This document shows positions 46,724 through 61,992 of a DNA stretch of 64,000 bases, one piece after another. Source of the stretch: Bdellovibrionales bacterium (GTDB taxonomy: Bacteria; Bdellovibrionota; Bdellovibrionia; Bdellovibrionales; UBA1609); contig CBDBGT010000011.1 of assembly GCA_965205365.1 (NCBI GenBank), positions 347,489 to 411,488 of the forward strand, in the 5' to 3' direction. How positions within the stretch are numbered: the stretch's first letter is position 1; each line of letters starts with the position of its first letter. A program made the position numbers and the translations under genes. The notes under the pieces were generated by a model. It was given only the letters and a program-made list of their open reading frames with translations. It was not told the DNA's origin and did not search any database.

Positions 46724-46810
46724 GCCTTGGTGGCGAAATTGGTAGACGCACAGGACTTAAAATCCTGCGGTAGCAATACCATGCCGGTTCAAGTCCGGCC
46801 CGAGGCACCA
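46724..46810 (+). tRNA. tRNA-Leu (anticodon UAA), encoded CCA
   Basis: Acceptor stem gccttgg/ccgaggc, anticodon arm cagga-CUUAAAA-tcctg, long variable arm, T-arm ccgg-ttcaagt-ccgg, and a 3' acca. Confidence 0.9.
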
Positions 46811-50388: not shown

Positions 50389-50465
50389 TGGCGGGGTGGA
50401 CGGGACTCGAACCCGCGGCCTCCGCCGTGACAGGGCGGCGTTATAACCAACTTAACTACCACCCC
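50389..50465 (-). tRNA. tRNA-Asp (anticodon GUC), encoded CCA
   Basis: The reverse complement is ggggtggtagttaagttggttataacgccgccCTGTCACggcggaggccgcgggttcgagtcccgtccaccccgcca. It has a canonical cloverleaf. Confidence 0.9.
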
Positions 50466-52483: not shown

Positions 52484-54465
52484 GAGCTTAGAAAATATTT
52501 TATCATTTTTTTAAATAATTAAAGAGTTTAGACCTTAATTTTCCTACTGTTTTTGTATCAAAATAAGAAAAAAACATTTCTTTAAAAACACTAAGTTAAA
52601 AATAAAGCTAAAAACCCACACTTATTACGCCTTAATATTAAATTAAGAAAAACACTTAATTTCCTTTAGTTTTTAAGCCCTTTATCCGATACATAGAGTA
52701 TAAAATATAAGAATTTATATAGGATATAACATGAAAGCTTTAACTTTATTTACAGTTTTATTATGGACGTTTTCTTCCTTGGCTGTGCCAAGTTCTTTTG
52801 TCTTTCAAGGTCAAATTATAAAGCCCAATGGAGAAGCCCTAGAAGACAATAATGTTAACTTTATTCTTAAAATCCTATCTCCCCTAAACCACTGCCTCCT
52901 CTATGAAGAAACCTTCACCCTTAATATGACAGACTCAAAGGGAGTGTTTAACCTAAGTGTAGGGTCTGGCACAACCACAGGAAATGGTGGCTTAACAAGT
53001 TTATCTAAAGCCCTAGACAATTCCTTAAACAACATCACAGGGCTTAACTGTGACTCTGGTTCCTCATACAGTCCAAGCCTCACTGACACAAGAAAACTTA
53101 GAATGACTTTTGATGACGGCAGTGGCCCCCTTACTCTAACAAATGACCACACAATTGAAAGTGTGCCCTATGCTCAGTACGCTCATAAACTTGGCGGAAA
53201 AACACTTCATGACTTTATTCAAGTCAACAGTGGTGTGACACAAAGTAATTTAGAAACTGTGTTTGATAACGGTGTAAACCAAAGAGAGCTTATGGCTTTA
53301 ATTGAGGGCCGTTCTAACCAATACTCTCCATTAAGCACTAGTGGAGCTAGTTCTTTACCGAGCTTTTCAAATCCTCCCCTTAACTCTAAGGCAGGAGATG
53401 TTTGGTACAACTCTACAACCAATGAAATCATGTACCACAATGGATCAGTAAACACCGTTGTTGGCCAAGGGAGTGGAACTGTGACCAGTATCACCACAGG
53501 AAGTGGTCTAAGTGGTGGAATCATTACAAATAGCGGTACAATTTCAATTGCCACAGGGGGTGTATTAAACAGTCACCTTCAAGGTGGTATCCATGGAAGT
53601 AAAATCACAGGAGGAGTTTTACCAGCCTCAGTGGTTCCAACAGGAACTGATGATACAAAGCTTTCTCTTCAAGGGGGAAGTTTATTAGGTGATCTTAACC
53701 TTAATGGAAATGAGGTTTTAAACACAGGTCATATTATGCAAAACCCGAGGAGTACAATGACCCTAGGTTCTTATGGGAATTTAGAAGAGGCTAGTCTTTT
53801 AGGTTCTTTGAGTGCGGGGAATGCTGGAGCCACTTGGTACAATAGTGATTCTAGGGTGCTTAAGTACTGGGACGGTAGTGGTGTAGAAGTGTTAACCACA
53901 GTGAGTGTAGGTGTATCAAGTGTTTTAGTGAGTCCCCCGTTAACTTCTTCAGGTGGTAATGATCCAAGAATAGGCATAAGCCTTGGTAGGGGTTTATACA
54001 ACAAGAGTGGAAGTGTGGAGATAGATTTAGACTCTCTTAGTGGTTTAGACTTTAATGGAAATAGGTTAAGAGTAAAAGCAGGAAGTGGTATAAGACTAAC
54101 AGGAAGTGGTATAGAGGCAGATACGGGAACGAGTTTAGGTCAGTTAATGAGAGTAGACAGTCTTCCTGTGTGCACAAGTGGGGAAAAGATTCAAAGAAAC
54201 TCTGGAGCCACAGTGACTTATTCTTGTGTGGCTGATGTAGATGAAGACACAAGTCTTTTAGGAAAATCAGCAGGAGGAGACCTTAGTGGAACTTATCCAA
54301 ACCCCATTTTAACATCAACAGGGGTGAGTGAGGGAATTTATTCAAAAGTTAGAGTGGACACTAAGGGAAGGGTAAGAGAGGGTTTAAGTTTGGACTTCCC
54401 CAAATATAGTAGACAGATTAGGAAGTTCCTATGTAGCCCTAAAAGAGGCTGAAAGGGATGAGAAA

Positions 54466-54762
54466 ATGTCAGAGAAAAGAAAACATAAACACTATAACAA
54501 AGAATTCAAAATAGAAGCTGTAAAATTAGCTGAGACAGTTGGAGTAATGAAGGCTGCTGCTGAACTAGGTGTAGCAAAAAAATCTATTCAAAACTGGATA
54601 AATGGGATCTATATGGGTGGAGCTCAATGTAAAAAGTCAAAAATGGCCGAAATGGAAGCTGAGCTTAGAAGGATTAAAAAAGAAAACAAAAACCTAAAGT
54701 TAATCAATGATGTTCTAAAAAAAAGCACTGCGATATTCTCCAAAGACCAAATTGGAGATTAG
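54466..54762 (+). CDS. IS3-family transposase OrfA (HTH)
   Basis: HYNKEFKIEAVKLA...; helix-turn-helix plus leucine-zipper-like C-terminus. Confidence 0.85.
   Translation: MSEKRKHKHYNKEFKIEAVKLAETVGVMKAAAELGVAKKSIQNWINGIYMGGAQCKKSKMAEMEAELRRIKKENKNLKLINDVLKKSTAIFSKDQIGD
54717..54723 (+). promoter_or_regulatory. A_AAA_AAA -1 programmed frameshift site for the OrfAB fusion
   Basis: Zero-frame codons are cta aaa aaa agc. The -1 frame is open from here into orfB (...KKKHCDILQRPNWRLEMILK...). Confidence 0.6.
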
Positions 54763-54764
54763 AG

Positions 54765-55634
54765 ATGATTTTAAAGTTAAAAAATCAAATGAGTGTGAAG
54801 TTTTTAGCAGAGCACTTTGGGTTGTCTAGACCTTCTTTTTATAAATGGTTGAAGCTTAGGAGTAAGTCCACATCTGGTTTGAACTCTAAAACTGAAATCT
54901 GTAAAGAGATCAGATCTATTTTTAGATCTTCAAAGCAAACTTATGGATCCCCTAGAATTTACGCTGAACTCAAAACTAAAGAGGTTTTCATCAGTGAAAA
55001 CACTGTGGCTAAATACATGGGTGAGATGGGCTTAAATGCAAGATTGAAGAAAAAATATAGAGTGATGACTACAGATTCAAACCACGCCCATGCCATAGCC
55101 CCCAGACTTTTTAAAACTGAAGATGAGCACTGTCTTCCAACAAAGCCAGGGACTGTTTTAGCTGGTGACATCACTTATTTGAAGCTCTCAAAGCACAACC
55201 ATGTCTACCTTGCTGTGGTTTTAGACCTGTACAACAGAGAAGTTGTGGGTTGGTCTATGAGCCTCTCGCTGGACACTAGAGTTGTTATGGATGCCCTCCA
55301 CGGAGCCATTAAAAAGACGAATCCAGATGCAGAGGTGATCTTCCACTCTGACCGTGGTGTGCAGTACGCGTCTGACGCGTATAGAAAGTTTTTGAGAAAC
55401 CAGAAGATCAAGCCATCAATGAGCAGAAAAGGAAATTGTTATGACAATGCTTATGTGGAGAGTTTTTTTAGTTCACTTAAGAAAGAATGGGTGTACAGAC
55501 AAAATCCTGAAACTGAAGATGCTATGAAGGCCTGTGTCTTCAATTATATTGAAGCTTGGTACAATGCAAAAAGACGACACTCATCACTTGATTATATGAG
55601 TCCATTAGATTACAGAATTAAACAACAAAAATGA
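54765..55634 (+). CDS. IS3-family transposase OrfB (DDE integrase core)
   Basis: GDITYL, HSDRGVQYAS and YDNAYVESFF (the D, D, E motifs); the stop lies in the right IR. Confidence 0.9.
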   Translation: MILKLKNQMSVKFLAEHFGLSRPSFYKWLKLRSKSTSGLNSKTEICKEIRSIFRSSKQTYGSPRIYAELKTKEVFISENTVAKYMGEMGLNARLKKKYRVMTTDSNHAHAIAPRLFKTEDEHCLPTKPGTVLAGDITYLKLSKHNHVYLAVVLDLYNREVVGWSMSLSLDTRVVMDALHGAIKKTNPDAEVIFHSDRGVQYASDAYRKFLRNQKIKPSMSRKGNCYDNAYVESFFSSLKKEWVYRQNPETEDAMKACVFNYIEAWYNAKRRHSSLDYMSPLDYRIKQQK

Positions 55635-55656
55635 ACTTCCTAATCTGTCTACTTTT

Positions 55657-57759
55657 TTGGGGAAGTCCAGTTTAGTAGAAAGTGATATACCAAATTTAAG
55701 TGGAAGTAAAATCACTTCAGGAACCATTGATACAAATAGATTAAACACAGGAACAGGGAGCAATGACCTTGTTAAGCTTGATGGTTTATCAAGGTTACCT
55801 AGTGTAGATGGGAGTCAGCTTATAAACTTACCAAGTAGTGCTGACAATATGGGAAATGGTGAGGCTCAAGAGAATATACATCTTAATGGAAATTATTTAA
55901 GTGGAGACGGTGATAATGAGGGAATTAGTGTAGATGCATTAGGAAGGGTTGGAGTGGGTAAAAGGAATCCTCAAGCATTATTAGATGTTTCTGGAAAAGT
56001 AAGGGTAGAAGAGATTTGTGATGAAAGAGGTGGAAACTGTAAGGATGTGTCAACAGGTTGGGATAGAGGGAGTGTAGGAGCAAACCAAGTGACCAACGTT
56101 CCTTTTGGAAATGTTTTAGGCACAGATGTTCAGACTGCTATTAATGAGCTTGATTCTAAAAAAGTTCCAATAACTAGAGAAATTGCAACAGTTTTAAATA
56201 GTGGATTAAGTGGAGGAGGGGATTTATCCACCAACAAGAATTTAAGTGTGGATATTCATGGAACTGTAGAAGAGAGTACAGTGAGTGATTTAGACAGTGT
56301 TTTAATCCACGATGTATCCCAAAATAGTTTAAAAAAAATAACACAGTCAAATTTTTTAAATGATTATTTTAAAGGATCTTTAGGAACCAGTTTAGGTGAT
56401 GCAATGGATGCTGGAGGTGTGCCTAGTTGTGGAGTGGATGAGAAGCTTAGAATGAGTCAAGGCCCTGTTTATTTATGGTCATGTGTGGTGGATGAGGACA
56501 CAAGTCTTTTAGGAAAATCAGCAGGAGGAGACCTTAGGGGAACTTATCCAAACCCGACTTTAGCATCAACAGGGGTGAGTGAGGGAATCTACTTAAAAGT
56601 TAGAGTGGACACTAAGGGAAGAGTAACAGAGGGTTTAAGTTTATCAGAAAGTGATATACCAAATTTAAGTGGAAGTAAAATCACTTCAGGAACCATTGAT
56701 ACAAATAGATTAAACACAGGAACAGGGAGTAATGACCTTGTTAAGCTTGATGGTTTATCAAGGTTACCAAGGGTAGATGGGAGTCAGCTTACAAACTTAC
56801 CAAGTAGTGCTGACAATATGGGAAATGGTGAGGCTCAAGAGAATATACATCTTAATGGAAATTATTTAAGTGGAGATGGTGATAATGAGGGAATTAGTGT
56901 AAACAGTGATGGTGATGTTTTTGCTTCTAGAAATATTGCTGCTGTGGGGTCTATTAGTGGATCTAGTGTTGTACTTTCAAATGGAATAAAAATAGGAACA
57001 GAGGAAACAACTTGCAATACTTTAAACGAGGGGACTTTAAGGTATAGTGAAAAGAAAATGGAATTTTGTAATGGAAACGTGTGGAGTGTTTTAGGTGTTG
57101 ATGATCCATGTCTTGATTCTTCCCCCTTGCCAGGTGCTGTGTGTAAAGGTGGAGCAATTTATCTTGGAAGCCTTAGCCCAGGTGCTACCAGTGGTAGTGG
57201 AACAGATCACTACATGACCACCCCTGGGGGTTGTGGGGACATTCCATCAGGAAGTGTTTCAGGGGGCTCGGGGTCAAATTCTTATGCATTAAATGATTTT
57301 ACAGTGACTTGTTCTGGTACTGATAGTTTATTTAAAGATTGGAATAATAATACAAGTAATTGGTATAATATTCCAGGGCTAGCAAATTACACATCAACTT
57401 GGGGAATTGGTCATGGTGAAAGTAACATAGATTTAAATTACGGTTCAGCGAATACAGATGTAATTGTTGCCATTACTTTAGAGTCTCAAGGGGGCTATCA
57501 TGCCGCAGCAAGGTATTGTCATAAGCTTGTTTATGGTGGTTATGATGATTGGCATTTACCTAACCGCTATGAGCTTAATTTAATGTACACAAATCGTTCT
57601 GCTCTTCCAGGTTTAAATCAGAGTAGTGTTAGTGGTTATTATTGGTCGTCTACGGAGAGCAGTATTCACAGTGCGTGGATCCAGCGGTTTTCTGATGGCT
57701 ATCAGTATTACGGCAATAAGCTCCATTCTCGACTTGTTCGTTGTGTACGGAGGTTTTGA
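55657..57759 (+). CDS. VR-bearing C-terminal fragment of the DGR target (DUF1566/CLec-type C-terminal domain)
   Basis: The open frame starts at a TTG inside the IS3 right IR. The C-terminus reads ...YHAAARYCHKLVYGGYDDWHLPNRYELNLMY...YWSSTESSIHSAWIQRFSDGYQYYGNKLHSRLVRCVRRF. Confidence 0.7.
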   Translation: MGKSSLVESDIPNLSGSKITSGTIDTNRLNTGTGSNDLVKLDGLSRLPSVDGSQLINLPSSADNMGNGEAQENIHLNGNYLSGDGDNEGISVDALGRVGVGKRNPQALLDVSGKVRVEEICDERGGNCKDVSTGWDRGSVGANQVTNVPFGNVLGTDVQTAINELDSKKVPITREIATVLNSGLSGGGDLSTNKNLSVDIHGTVEESTVSDLDSVLIHDVSQNSLKKITQSNFLNDYFKGSLGTSLGDAMDAGGVPSCGVDEKLRMSQGPVYLWSCVVDEDTSLLGKSAGGDLRGTYPNPTLASTGVSEGIYLKVRVDTKGRVTEGLSLSESDIPNLSGSKITSGTIDTNRLNTGTGSNDLVKLDGLSRLPRVDGSQLTNLPSSADNMGNGEAQENIHLNGNYLSGDGDNEGISVNSDGDVFASRNIAAVGSISGSSVVLSNGIKIGTEETTCNTLNEGTLRYSEKKMEFCNGNVWSVLGVDDPCLDSSPLPGAVCKGGAIYLGSLSPGATSGSGTDHYMTTPGGCGDIPSGSVSGGSGSNSYALNDFTVTCSGTDSLFKDWNNNTSNWYNIPGLANYTSTWGIGHGESNIDLNYGSANTDVIVAITLESQGGYHAAARYCHKLVYGGYDDWHLPNRYELNLMYTNRSALPGLNQSSVSGYYWSSTESSIHSAWIQRFSDGYQYYGNKLHSRLVRCVRRF
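56489..56901 (+). repeat. Copy B of the ~414-bp intragenic direct repeat
   Basis: See copy A; I counted about 18 mismatches over ~414 nt. Confidence 0.8.
57642..57751 (+). repeat. DGR variable region (VR)
   Basis: Gap-free 110-nt alignment with TR. There are 13 mismatches, all at TR adenines. The VR lies in the last 39 codons of the target ORF. Confidence 0.9.
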
Positions 57760-57800
57760 GGCCTGAAAGGGCTCATTAGCTCTTTAGCCCTTTAGTTCTT

Positions 57801-57835
57801 TTATCTTAAGGAGGCTTTAAGCCTCCTTAAGATAA
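57801..57835 (+). terminator. Perfect 16-bp-stem hairpin 42 nt downstream of the target stop codon
   Basis: ttatcttaaggaggct-tta-agcctccttaagataa. There is no clear T-tract, so it could be a terminator or the DGR target-site hairpin/cruciform. Confidence 0.45.
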
Positions 57836-57895
57836 AATTATTTAATTTTAGAGACGCGTTGAGTAAATTAAAAATTATTTACATAGCGATACTTT

Positions 57896-58483: not shown

Positions 58484-58593
58484 TTGGTCGTCTACGGAGA
58501 ACAATAATAACAATGCGTGGATCCAGCGGTTTTCTGATGGCAATCAGAATAACAACAATAAGAACAATTCTCGACTTGTTCGTTGTGTACGGA
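58484..58593 (+). repeat. DGR template repeat (TR)
   Basis: Non-coding copy of VR with 35 adenines. In the VR frame it reads WSSTENNNNNAWIQRFSDGNQNNNNKNNSRLVRCVR (12 AAY codons). Confidence 0.9.
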
Positions 58594-58647
58594 AGTGAAG
58601 CCTCCTCCAGTTTTTTTTATGAATTTTAATATAAAGGTGAAAACTTT

Positions 58648-59781
58648 GTGTCAAATATGGAATTAAGTTTTGAAGAAGTAGTTAAGGCTTACTTTAATTG
58701 TCGAAAAAACAAAAGAAATACAGTTCATCAGCTAACGTATGAATTTTGTTTAGAACAAGAATTATTTGATCTTTATCAAGATCTTAAAAAAGGCACCTAT
58801 AAAATTGGACCAAGTGTAGCTTTTGTTGTGGATCAACCAAAGGTTCGAGAGATTTGGGCTGCAACTTTTAGAGACAGAGTTGTTCATCACATTATTTATA
58901 ATCGTTTGTCATCGAGTTATTATAAGAGGTTTATTAGAAACTCTTTTGCATGTATTCCAGGAAGAGGAACTCTTGATGGATCAAACCGGTTGATGAAGGG
59001 TATGCAGTCAATTACTAAGAATTGGCAGAAGCCCGCTTACTTTTTGTCAGCAGACATTAGAAATTTTTTTGTATCAATTAATAAAAATATTTTATGGAAC
59101 ATTCTAAGTCCAAATATTCAAGAAGAATGGTTAAGAGATTTAACTCATCAGGTTTTATTTCATGATCCAAGACTAGGTTGTATTAAGAAATCTAATGATT
59201 TTGCTTTTGCAAGAGTTCCTAAATATAAAAGCCTTTGGAACTGTTGTAAGAATAAAGGCTTGCCCATAGGTAATCTAACGAGCCAGTTTTTTGCAAATGT
59301 TTATCTTAATGAACTTGATCAATTTTTTGTTCATCACAAAGGTTTTGGAAAATATTATTTTCGTTATGTAGATGATTTTATTATTTTAAATGAATCTGTG
59401 AACCAGCTAAATGAAATGCATAAAGAAGCTGGATTTTTTCTTAAAGAAAAATTAGATTTGGATTTACATCCTTATAAAAAACAAATTGGGCTAGTTGCTC
59501 AAGGTGTTTATTTTGTTGGTTATGTTAACAAACCTTATAGAAGATATGTTAGAAAAAGAACAATAAATAAGGCAATGAGTGTTACTCGTCAGTGGAAAAA
59601 ATCGCTACACCCGTATTCAGAAGAATCTTTAAAAAAGCTACGAGGATCAATAAATGCATATATGGGAATTATGAAATGGGCACATAGCTACAAGGAACGT
59701 AAAAAACTTGTTCAAAAAACTACGAATCTTTATGTAAGACCTGAAAATGAAAATTATTTAAAGATTAAGATTTTTTGCTGA
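58648..59781 (+). CDS. DGR reverse transcriptase
   Basis: RT motifs LSADIRNFF, LPIGNLTSQFFANVYL (the DGR-type [IL]GxxxSQ motif), YFRYVDDFIIL and GVYFVGY. It starts 55 nt after TR. GTG start with an AAAGGTGA SD; an alternative ATG lies at 58657. Confidence 0.9.
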   Translation: MSNMELSFEEVVKAYFNCRKNKRNTVHQLTYEFCLEQELFDLYQDLKKGTYKIGPSVAFVVDQPKVREIWAATFRDRVVHHIIYNRLSSSYYKRFIRNSFACIPGRGTLDGSNRLMKGMQSITKNWQKPAYFLSADIRNFFVSINKNILWNILSPNIQEEWLRDLTHQVLFHDPRLGCIKKSNDFAFARVPKYKSLWNCCKNKGLPIGNLTSQFFANVYLNELDQFFVHHKGFGKYYFRYVDDFIILNESVNQLNEMHKEAGFFLKEKLDLDLHPYKKQIGLVAQGVYFVGYVNKPYRRYVRKRTINKAMSVTRQWKKSLHPYSEESLKKLRGSINAYMGIMKWAHSYKERKKLVQKTTNLYVRPENENYLKIKIFC

Positions 59782-59789
59782 TGTTACGC

Positions 59790-60128
59790 ACCTAGGCTTA
59801 AATAAAGGAGAGTTCCTAAGCTTCACTATGACCCCAGGAAACGTTCATGATACAAAGCCTTTAGAGAATCTTGCAGATGGTTTGTTTGGAAAGCGGAGAT
59901 AAGGGATATATCTTAAAAGAACCTCTTTAAAAAACTTATGGGCAAAGGTGTTTAAGTTGATTACTCATTTAAAATCAAATATGAAAAATAAGTTTGTACC
60001 ACTTTTTCATAAACTTTTACTGAGAAAAAGATATATTGTTGAGACTGTTTTTAGAATTTTAAAGGAAGAGTTTCATATTGAACACTCAAGACACCAAAGT
60101 CTTAAAAAACTTTATAGTGAATCTTTTC
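59790..60128 (+). pseudogene. IS982-family transposase C-terminal remnant (frameshifted, truncated by the IS1634-family element)
   Basis: FTMTPGNVHD..., GDKGYI (in another frame), LITHLKSNMKNK and LLLRKRYIVETVFRILKEEFHIEHSRH. It needs at least two frame changes and has no ends. Confidence 0.5.
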
Positions 60129-61992
60129 CTGACTTCGACACTCCTGTTAAAAAGCCCCTCTTGAGTTCAAATATACGCACCAGAGAAGGTTAAAAAGTCT
60201 AAAACTCGAAATGTAGTGACCCCTTTTTTTTCTTTACAAGTATTTTTAGGCTAGTAATTTTAATAGCCATGTTTATTCGAGAAGTAAAAAAACCAAACGG
60301 AAGTGTTTCAATTAGAATAGTTGAATCTACTCGAGTAAAAAATAAAGTTATTCAAAAAGTCATTAGAACTCTGGGACAACACAAGGATGCAAGAGAAATA
60401 GCCATTATTAAGAAAGCAGCACAGGACTTAATAATAGAGCTAAAAAACACAAGAAACCCAGCCCTTCCTGGAATGGAAGAAACTGTGCACTCCACGACTT
60501 GCACAAAAAAAGCCAGCACAAGAAACCCAGAGCTAGTGGATATAAAGAATCTATCTGAGCAAGGTCGTGTTAACCAAGGCATTCACACAGTTTTAGGCAA
60601 AGTTTATAATCAAATGAACTTTAACGATATCATAAAAAACACAAAAAAAGATGATGAGTGGAACTCTATTCTTCAAGATTGTGTTTTAGCAAGAATCTCT
60701 AGGCCGCAGAGTAAAAGAAAAACAGCAGATAGCTTAAAAAAAGTTTTCTCAAAACCCCTTCCTCTTCATAAGATATACCGTATGATGGACAGAGTTTTTC
60801 TAAACGAAGAAAGACTAAAATCAAAAGTCTTAAATTCCACTCTAAACCTTTTTAATGACCAGGTTGACGTTATGTTCTTTGATGTCACAACGCTATATTT
60901 TGAAAGCTTTACTTCAGATGAACTTAGAGCCAATGGTTTTAGTAAGGATGCTAAGTTTAAAGAAACTCAAGTTGTTCTCGCCTTGGTTACAAACTCACAG
61001 GGACACCCAGTAACTTATGAGCTTTTTCCTGGCAACACTTATGAGGGCAACACATTAATAGAGATAGTTAAAAACTTAAAAACCCGTTTTAATGTAAATC
61101 AAGTTACCCTTGTGGCTGATAGAGGTATGTTTAATGAGGCAAACTTAGTTTTACTAGAAGCTGAAAACATTCATTATATTGTGGGGGCTAAGTTAAAATC
61201 TTTACCAAAGAATTTAAAAGAAGAAATCTGTCATAAAAACTTTAAACCCCATGTGGTGAGCAATGAACTGCAGTGGGTTAGAGAGTTTGAGCACAAGAAA
61301 AGAAGGCTTGTTGTTGGGTATTCTAATAAAAGAGCTTATAAAGATGCATTTGACCGGGAAAAGATAATTGTTCGTCTTTTAAAGAAAGCCAAAGATGGAA
61401 AACTTAAAGCAAGTGACCTTATAACTAATTATGGAACGAAAAAGTACCTTAAGTCTTTTAAGGGGGATGTAGAGGTTGATAAGTGTAAGATTAGTAGAGA
61501 CGCTCAGTGGGATGGTTTTCATGGTGTCATTACAAATCTTGAAGACAAGTCTGCAGCTGAAGTTTTAGAGCGTTATAGAGGGCTGTGGAAAATAGAACAA
61601 GCGTTTAGAATAAGTAAGACAGATTTAAAGATGCGACCTATTTTTCATTGGAAGTCTGAGAGGATTAAGGCTCATATTGGAATTTGTTTTCTAGCATATG
61701 CAATTGTTTGTAGAGTAAATAAGCTTATTAAGGAAAACCAATTAGAGTTTAGTTTTTTAGATCTTAAAGAGGAGTTAAATAGAGATGAGTACAGTGTTTT
61801 AAAAGACTCTAGTACGGGGCGATTTTATGAGCTTGTATCTAAGACTACTCCTGTTTTAAAGAAAATTTACCAAGTTTTAAACCTTAAGAGAAAGGACTGT
61901 ATTCGCCTAGTTAAAGAGCAAATGTAGTGACCCCAGCAAAATCTAAGCACTTGATTTTATTAGCTTTATGCGCCGTGTTGTGTCGAAGTCAG
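60129..61992 (+). mobile_element. IS1634-family insertion sequence (1864 bp)
   Basis: Terminal IRs are ctgacttcgacac (60129-) and gtgtcgaagtcag (-61992). A single 552-aa transposase gene is present. An internal 15-nt direct repeat aaatgtagtgacccc lies at 60209-60223 and 61920-61934. Confidence 0.8.
60269..61927 (+). CDS. IS1634-family (IS4-related) DDE transposase
   Basis: N-terminus MFIREVKKPNGSVSIRIVESTRVKNKVIQKVIRTLG; DDE motifs FFDVTTLYFES, LVADRGMF and YRGLWKIEQAFRISK. Confidence 0.75.
   Translation: MFIREVKKPNGSVSIRIVESTRVKNKVIQKVIRTLGQHKDAREIAIIKKAAQDLIIELKNTRNPALPGMEETVHSTTCTKKASTRNPELVDIKNLSEQGRVNQGIHTVLGKVYNQMNFNDIIKNTKKDDEWNSILQDCVLARISRPQSKRKTADSLKKVFSKPLPLHKIYRMMDRVFLNEERLKSKVLNSTLNLFNDQVDVMFFDVTTLYFESFTSDELRANGFSKDAKFKETQVVLALVTNSQGHPVTYELFPGNTYEGNTLIEIVKNLKTRFNVNQVTLVADRGMFNEANLVLLEAENIHYIVGAKLKSLPKNLKEEICHKNFKPHVVSNELQWVREFEHKKRRLVVGYSNKRAYKDAFDREKIIVRLLKKAKDGKLKASDLITNYGTKKYLKSFKGDVEVDKCKISRDAQWDGFHGVITNLEDKSAAEVLERYRGLWKIEQAFRISKTDLKMRPIFHWKSERIKAHIGICFLAYAIVCRVNKLIKENQLEFSFLDLKEELNRDEYSVLKDSSTGRFYELVSKTTPVLKKIYQVLNLKRKDCIRLVKEQM

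Follow-up and report, generated by a model that had tools for sequence, protein, structure and literature searches.

An IS3-family insertion splits the fibre gene next to a diversity-generating retroelement in a Bdellovibrionales bacterium

Introduction

Inactivation and phase variation of surface genes by insertion sequences (IS) are known from IS492 in Pseudoalteromonas eps and from IS256 in staphylococcal ica, where an intact IS with its target duplication sits in a surface or adhesion gene whose frame can be restored. Members of the IS3 family (IS911, IS3, IS150) measure about 1.3 kb, are bounded by TG...CA inverted repeats (IRs), make a 3-bp duplication and carry orfA in frame 0 and orfB in frame -1; a stem-loop comes after an A-rich slippery heptamer. 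Here we describe an element of this kind in a 64,000-nucleotide stretch of DNA from a Bdellovibrionales bacterium (GenBank assembly GCA_965205365.1, contig CBDBGT010000011.1, positions 347,489 to 411,488 of the forward strand; the whole stretch is called the window below). It interrupts the target gene that lies next to the reverse transcriptase (RT) of a diversity-generating retroelement (DGR), and with a probability of roughly 0.8 we read the insertion as a plain null allele of a redundant fibre gene.

The DGRs that come closest to the one in the window are those of the Legionella type, with DUF1566/Lcl_C (CLec2, "category d") targets (PMC5758913). They share with it the order of target with variable region (VR), avd, template region (TR) and RT, the adenine-specific substitutions, the placement of the VR at the very C-terminal end of an Lcl_C/DUF1566 domain and the RT motifs IGNLTSQ and YVDD. 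The target is different, since it is a long fibre of the mosaic adhesive trimer (MAT) type and not a lipoprotein; it has several near-identical paralogues, at least two RT copies occur in one relative, and the RT-adjacent target is split by the IS. A survey of cyanobacteria recorded transposases near DGR loci as well as degraded cassettes (PMC7517822), and no report of an IS-split DGR target was found in the literature searched.

The MAT fibres of Bdellovibrio bacteriovorus, such as Bd2740 with its C-type lectin tip, resemble the target in the window by their signal peptide, conserved N-domain, repetitive shaft and lectin-like tip (PMC10769870). Their N-domain follows the signal peptide and is thought to be located at the predator surface, with the variable tip facing outward (PMC10769870). 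In the window, unlike in these fibres, the tip is coupled to a DGR, and trimerisation and display are predicted from the domain order. Bd2740 has been likened to the phage DGR protein Mtd as a fold only (PMC10769870); apart from this comparison, nothing in the full-text literature searched connected DGRs with MAT fibres or with Bdellovibrio.

Results

An IS lies within codon 554 of the target gene

Deleting the IS together with one GTT joins positions 52731-54390 to 55673-57759 in an open reading frame (ORF) of 3747 nt and 1248 codons, which is free of internal stops and reads ...REGLSL/VESDIPN... at the restored junction. A previous sequence-only reading of this DNA had placed a 1279-bp IS3-family element at 54391-55669, at about codon 554 of the target, and had predicted that its precise removal would restore the frame through EGLSL/VESDIPN. 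Both predictions hold: the insertion lies within codon 554, and the element is delimited by TG...CA ends, IRs and a target duplication and carries the expected ORFs. The GTT duplication that had been announced flanks the IS on both sides (54388-54390 and 55670-55672), an arrangement with a probability of 1/64 by chance. IRs of about 37 bp had also been described; they are present, although they measure 38 and 37 nt rather than exactly 37. One indel and one mismatch are all that sets them apart (36 matches in 38 positions), and the terminal sequences of the element are TGGACTTCCCCAAA... on the left and ...TTTGGGGAAGTCCA on the right.

IS relatives that are 79% (L001-L003) and 76% (L004-L007) identical occur on unrelated metagenome contigs, and their alignment with the window IS ends exactly at both of its termini. 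Because the homology stops at the same two points, the limits of the IS are independently supported; the IR architecture TG...TTCCCCAAA..AGTAGACA..GAAGTTC is common to the window IS and these relatives. Besides, the IS sits inside copy 1 of a 969-nt internal repeat of the gene, and since copy 2 is uninterrupted at the equivalent point, it therefore provides an in-gene control for the empty site. Within the window there is neither a second copy of the IS nor a second copy of the target gene, and a scan of the genome contigs with the IS inverted-repeat pattern gave no match. The 7-mer TAGTAGA directly to the right of the insertion (55673-55679) recurs within the IS inverted repeats (54407-54413; ..ATAGTAGACAG..), a repetition that could reflect an IR-like target preference or chance.

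The insertion separates the anchor of the fibre from its tip

Neither of the two gene fragments has a stop or a frameshift, and the domains of the fibre are divided between them. The N-terminal fragment holds the signal peptide, with a hydrophobic leader (MKALTLFTVLLWTFSSLA) recognised by inspection, part of the shaft and the Bdello_MAT_N domain (NCBIfam NF053851; 162.9 bits against a cut-off of 60, residues 9-166), which is absent from the other fragment. The second shaft repeat belongs to the C-terminal fragment, as do the Lcl_C tip and the VR, neither of which is found on the N-terminal one; the Lcl_C/DUF1566 match (PF07603, E = 3.5e-15) covers residues 614-698 of 700. In a search of PDB sequences the C-terminal fragment matched 8q4e, a solved Lcl-type domain (PMC11162425), at 7e-7, and the N-terminal fragment had no match. 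By this domain content the split gene is a Bdellovibrio-type MAT fibre gene with an Lcl_C lectin-like tip, for which the trimer and its display are predicted.

The sequence-only reading had further described a 700-codon downstream frame that stays open from a TTG in the right IR and is decoupled from the signal peptide. We find this frame from TTG 55657 to 57759, with the signal peptide and Bdello_MAT_N solely on the N-terminal fragment. No Shine-Dalgarno sequence precedes this TTG, whose upstream open stretch is merely 16 codons long, counted from a stop at 55606; the native start of the gene has AGGA at -10. A scan for sigma70-like promoters, covering consensus sites only, found no plus-strand site pointing out near the right end of the IS. 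It yielded fewer sites than shuffled sequence, and for these two reasons the idea of an outward promoter borne by the IS was dropped. A C-fragment product, leaderless and anchorless as predicted, could not be a displayed fibre.

Relatives encode the uninterrupted protein

In the protein collection, four products of the window (P0298, P0173, P0167 and P0042) are found on a 560,244-bp contig, while uninterrupted 1248-aa proteins, P0044 and P0045, are encoded on two other contigs of 799,960 and 526,027 bp. When compared to P0044 and P0045, the reconstructed protein differs at 4 of 1248 residues outside the VR (R375G, S538L, V555L, S557G) and at 10-11 residues within it. The part of the C-terminal fragment outside the VR shows 0 mismatches over 653 aligned residues to P0044 and P0045 versus 20-43 to the paralogues in its own genome, and because of this difference the two are taken as orthologues. 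Scans of the genome contigs and the metagenome contigs with P0044 returned no match, and exact look-ups of contigs encoding Avd, OrfB, P0001, P0002, P0044 or P0042 likewise gave no entry.

The split-allele products P0298 and P0042 occur on one contig only. Concomitantly, identical OrfA and OrfB are present on 3 contigs, with a 99% variant and fragments on others. Judged from these comparisons, the insertion is real, recent and assembly-specific, with no decay since, and the IS is multi-copy in the lineage; we consider it recent and specific to this assembly because intact orthologues exist, the split products are confined to one contig, OrfA and OrfB recur on several contigs and the fragments are not decayed. 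This agrees with the recent event first proposed from the intact IRs and target duplication, given the intact P0044 and P0045, the four non-VR differences and the lack of stops and frameshifts. The comparison with relatives that had been recommended shows an interrupted allele that is neither fixed nor degraded, two contigs encoding the uninterrupted protein.

The RT in the window is 100% identical to an RT on the 799,960-bp contig of the relative, and the same Avd is encoded on two contigs. The three orthologous VRs vary nearly only at AAY codons, and the rest of the protein is nearly identical. The one exception is F1226I in P0045, which is beyond the reach of A-only mutagenesis. From this pattern of adenine-templated change in an otherwise almost unaltered protein, it follows that the DGR has been active on the timescale that separates the orthologues.

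At residues 538, 555 and 557 (54342-54390 and 55673-55683) the split allele matches the in-genome paralogues P0043 and P0046. A short tract of gene conversion within the repeats may account for these residues, with no established link to the insertion.

The element has the coding organisation of the IS3 family

The presence of orfA and orfB with an A_AAA_AAA slip site was also part of the initial description and was recovered here: with orfA taken as frame 0, orfB is read in frame -1, and the heptamer falls where the two overlap, at a point that the orfB frame crosses without a stop. The predicted OrfAB fusion that a -1 slip would produce (54466-54723 joined to 54723-55634) is 389 aa long and matches the NCBIfam IS3 model NF033516 end to end, with 357.8 bits (cut-off 160) over model positions 1-369 of 369. 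Its catalytic residues are D235, D296 and E332, and as 35 residues separate the second D from the E, the DD(35)E motif is intact. The slip cassette TGTTCTAAAAAAAAGCACTGCGAT is invariant among three elements that are 76-79% identical overall, and the sequence of the UCUCCAA/UUGGAGA stem-loop is nearly invariant in the IS relatives. Besides, orfB has an ATG of its own, with GGAG at -11. In every sequence-level feature of the family the element is thus an IS3 member, for which frameshifting and transposition are predicted.

The element differs from described IS3 members in its sequence. The best full-length OrfB match in the protein database has 85% identity, and the nearest annotated plasmid-borne IS3 transposases are about 41% identical; as these are labelled merely "IS3 family transposase", they gave no assignment to a subgroup (IS3, IS150, IS51 or IS407). 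It would be a previously unnamed IS, distant from the characterised members of the family. On a 404,524-bp contig, a 99%-identical IS copy (P0174) has a frame that enters via the left inverted repeat (IRL) and is continuous with orfA (MDLPKYSRQIRSSYVALKEAERDEKMSEK...), so that this IRL variant could fuse OrfA to the product of a gene upstream. Unlike in the P0174 copy, the frame entering through IRL in the window differs from the orfA frame.

The DGR module is intact

The sequence-only reading had stated that the downstream part keeps the VR, the hairpin and the avd-TR-RT module, and all of these DGR parts were found, avd as a putative accessory gene and the hairpin as a candidate with a modest z of -1.85. 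VR and TR are 88% identical, all core mismatches fall at TR adenines (TR A to VR N) and each VR codon can be reached from the TR via adenine changes alone, 11 of the 12 AAY codons being altered. Avd scores 60.9 bits with the Pfam model bAvd (cut-off 40) and 58.9 bits with the NCBIfam model DivGenRetAVD, which is under the equivalog cut-off of 80. The closest relatives of the RT come from Bdellovibrionales metagenome-assembled genomes and are 60-65% identical. With its VR, TR and RT and a putative Avd, the module is canonical and intact and belongs to the DUF1566/CLec2 target class. No second TR/VR copy was found within the window, and scanning the metagenome contigs with the TR/VR core pattern gave no match.

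In phage DGRs, a hairpin with a 7-10 bp GC stem and a GRNA loop is present, and the region of the initiation of mutagenic homing (IMH) sequence and the hairpin is sufficient for targeting (PMC3240598). The 3' side of the VR in the window carries a conserved block and a small imperfect hairpin, not one of this phage type. Further downstream, a perfect 18-bp hairpin stands between the target and avd and suggests, as far as sequence can tell, that transcription of avd-TR-RT does not depend on that of the target. The 18-bp hairpin looks like a terminator; alternatively, it could form a cruciform relevant to DGR targeting. The TR has a single AAG (Lys) codon with two adenines (58559-58561), which is unchanged in the window VR and in 8 database paralogues with an intact VR. 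If an AAG right at the 3' border of the repeat is set aside, no other diversifiable codon of the TR could become a stop (TAG) through adenine mutagenesis. The coordinates of all features are collected in Table 1.

Table 1. Position of the split target gene, the inserted element and the DGR parts in the window
Feature	Position	Strand	Basis or remark
N-terminal target fragment, 573 codons	52731..54452	+	553 native codons, split 554th codon still Leu, 19-codon tail from IRL
Internal repeat copy 1, left arm, upstream of IS	54245..54390	+	93% identical to 56496-56641
Target-site duplication, left copy, GTT	54388..54390	.	
Complete IS3-family insertion sequence, 1279 bp	54391..55669	+	IRs, target-site duplication, ORFs, homology of termini
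Left inverted repeat (IRL), 38 nt, TG at start	54391..54428	+	Repeat comparison
orfA, 98 aa, HTH_Tnp_1	54466..54762	+	ORF and domain match; identical protein P0173 on 3 contigs
Programmed -1 frameshift heptamer A_AAA_AAA (predicted), within A8 run 54717-54724	54717..54723	+	Sequence, conservation
Stem-loop UCUCCAA(8 nt)UUGGAGA, 13 nt 3' of heptamer; candidate frameshift stimulator; carries the orfB Shine-Dalgarno GGAG	54737..54758	+	z = -2.7
orfB, 289 aa, rve / DD(35)E	54765..55634	+	ORF and domain match
Right inverted repeat (IRR), 37 nt, CA at end; holds TTG 55657 of the downstream ORF	55633..55669	+	
C-terminal target fragment, 700-codon ORF from TTG in IRR	55657..57759	+	ORF; database protein P0042
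Target-site duplication, right copy, GTT	55670..55672	.	
Internal repeat copy 1, right arm, downstream of IS	55673..55932	+	97% identical to 56642-56901
Internal repeat copy 2, uninterrupted in-gene paralogue of the insertion site (GGTTTAAGTTTATCAGAAAGTG)	56496..56901	+	Repeat comparison
DGR variable region (VR), 3' end of target	57642..57754	+	TR/VR comparison
Small imperfect hairpin starting at the stop codon, candidate DGR target hairpin	57757..57775	+	z = -1.85, modest
Perfect 18-bp stem with 3-nt loop, terminator-like hairpin (TTTTATCTTAAGGAGGCT/AGCCTCCTTAAGATAAAA) between target stop and avd	57799..57837	+	z = -8.4
avd accessory gene (putative), 135 aa	57896..58303	+	bAvd match; identical protein on 2 contigs
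DGR template region (TR)	58484..58596	+	TR/VR comparison
DGR reverse transcriptase (RT), 374 aa from ATG (upstream GTG at 58648)	58657..59781	+	RVT_1 match; motifs IGNLTSQ, YVDD

The target gene belongs to a family of paralogues

The 560,244-bp contig that carries the split allele also encodes P0001 and P0046 (1249 aa each), P0300 (926 aa) and P0043 (1249 aa, frameshifted inside its VR), each with its own VR, so that the genome holds at least four paralogues besides the split copy (at least five copies). Related assemblies contain 3-5 target paralogues each, about 95% identical and with a different VR in every one; they are P0002, P0038, P0039 and P0044 on the 799,960-bp contig and P0040, P0041 and P0045 on the 526,027-bp contig. 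P0038 and P0041 are frameshifted just past a TPPPPPP tract, possibly via a slippery C-run, P0299 and P0040 together resemble a gene split near its N terminus, and in P0301 only a stub of 215 aa is left, ending in a foreign tail. Adenine changes alone do not lead from the TR in the window to the VR peptides of P0002, P0039 and P0300. The 799,960-bp contig of one relative carries two RT copies (P0176 and P0296), which differ only in their first ~17 residues. Taken from these sequences, a second TR/RT cassette probably exists in the lineage.

The neighbouring genes are chromosomal housekeeping genes (HisRS, an FGGY kinase and an astacin-type peptidase), and because of them the DGR is considered cellular and not prophage-borne; the host chromosome is low-GC and Bdellovibrionota-like. 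An Rfam scan of the window found only two tRNA genes (46724-46807, plus strand; 50392-50465, minus strand), far from the locus. The RT is followed directly by an 81-aa fragment of a DDE transposase (59948-60193) and by a full IS1634-family transposase of 552 aa (60269-61927; NCBIfam, 357 bits), the latter identical on 5 contigs, and the DGR locus thus sits within an IS-rich patch.

Discussion

On the null-allele reading, a multi-copy, transposition-competent IS3-family element would have recently entered codon 554 of the RT-adjacent copy of the fibre gene and made a 3-bp duplication. The N-terminal fragment keeps the signal peptide and the anchor domain, ends 20 codons into the IS and lacks the tip; the C-terminal fragment keeps the tip and the VR but has neither an export signal nor an anchor, nor start signals that can be recognised. 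From this architecture we infer a loss of function. The loss is probably tolerated thanks to redundancy, because the same contig encodes at least four paralogues with their own VRs that could take over from the split copy. The DGR module, which is untouched by the insertion, could still rewrite this VR. In the BPP-1 DGR, homing needs only sequences at or downstream of the VR (PMC3240598), and by analogy continued homing into the silent VR is plausible here because the IS lies 2 kb upstream of the VR and all DGR parts are intact.

Several observations weigh against a plain null allele that arose in one step. The empty site is documented at the protein level only, and it is by identity, not by synteny, that P0044 and P0045 are taken as orthologues of the RT-adjacent locus. 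Of the four non-VR differences, three fall within 20 codons of the insertion, which a pure single-step insertion does not explain. About half of the genes in the window also have no obvious Shine-Dalgarno sequence. Finally, the stop of orfB is just 22 nt before TTG 55657, so that reinitiation is conceivable, and no strong terminator was found within the IS, which makes read-through transcription possible.

A reversible switch would see in the IS the "off" state of a phase-variable fibre, turned "on" again either when the element excises precisely or when the internal repeats recombine. The repeats do offer a concrete path, since the IS lies within copy 1 and is preceded by a 146-nt arm that shares 93% identity with copy 2, including uninterrupted matches of 41, 27 and 25 nt. 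Crossing over in the arms would remove 2251 nt in frame, made up of the IS, one GTT and a repeat unit of 969 nt, and leave an ORF of 925 aa. Proteins with a single repeat occur naturally among the paralogues, namely P0300 (926 aa, same contig) and P0002 (929 aa), and as the paralogues are mosaics, recombination does occur in the fibre family. Such a deletion, however, would be a one-way repair to a 925-aa gene resembling the short paralogues rather than a switch, and neither an empty site nor a deletion variant has been observed. IS3-family elements rarely excise precisely over a 3-bp duplication, which counts against the other path. The varied lesions of the paralogues (a VR frameshift, frameshifts after the poly-Pro tract, N-terminal splits) also look like sporadic damage rather than a dedicated switch. 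Unlike in the IS492 and IS256 cases, no reversion has been observed, and the sole concrete rescue route also removes one shaft repeat. A switch is hence unlikely.

A related reading combines the silent VR with its possible return. The split copy would then be a silent, untranslated and selection-free VR archive that is still rewritten by the DGR and comes back to expression by recombination, either through the in-frame repeat deletion to a 925-aa fibre or through gene conversion into the expressed paralogues that are about 95% identical. We regard this joint reading, archive and return routes together, as quite unlikely. If it were true, the predator would possess a two-tier variation of its prey-recognition fibres, with retroelement mutagenesis on one level and cassette recombination on the other.

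It is very unlikely that the split has produced something new, in the sense that read-out or read-through transcription yields a separate, functional 700-aa protein bearing the VR. From TTG 55657 onwards the frame has no stop, and its product figures among publicly called genes (P0042); the nearby orfB stop and the lack of a strong terminator, raised above, likewise speak in favour of it. Against this, the TTG start has no Shine-Dalgarno sequence and no promoter-like plus-strand site lies near IRR, the 16 open codons upstream correspond to chance expectation, and a fragment with neither signal peptide nor MAT N-domain is undisplayable. That the assembler misplaced a multi-copy IS inside the gene is likewise very unlikely: multi-copy elements and near-identical paralogues are both known assembler confounders, but a misjoin would give neither a 3-bp direct duplication nor an exactly restorable frame, both flanks match the P0044/P0045 orthologue and no other paralogue, and the termini coincide exactly with the IS ends set by unrelated contigs. 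A chimera of two different paralogues, recombined by the IS, was rejected, as both flanks best match the same orthologue and the target duplication is intact.

The knockout of a surface-protein gene by an IS is in itself ordinary, and no new mechanism is shown here. DGR-driven variation of the prey-recognition fibres of a predator may be unreported so far. Read as a null allele, the locus is a natural experiment in which the target adjacent to a DGR is crippled in transcription and translation, yet no damage has reached the VR, the recognition region on its 3' side, Avd, TR or RT, and intact orthologues and paralogues are at hand for comparison. The wider context outweighs the IS: a multi-copy family of MAT prey-binding fibres with tips that are apparently diversified by a DGR.

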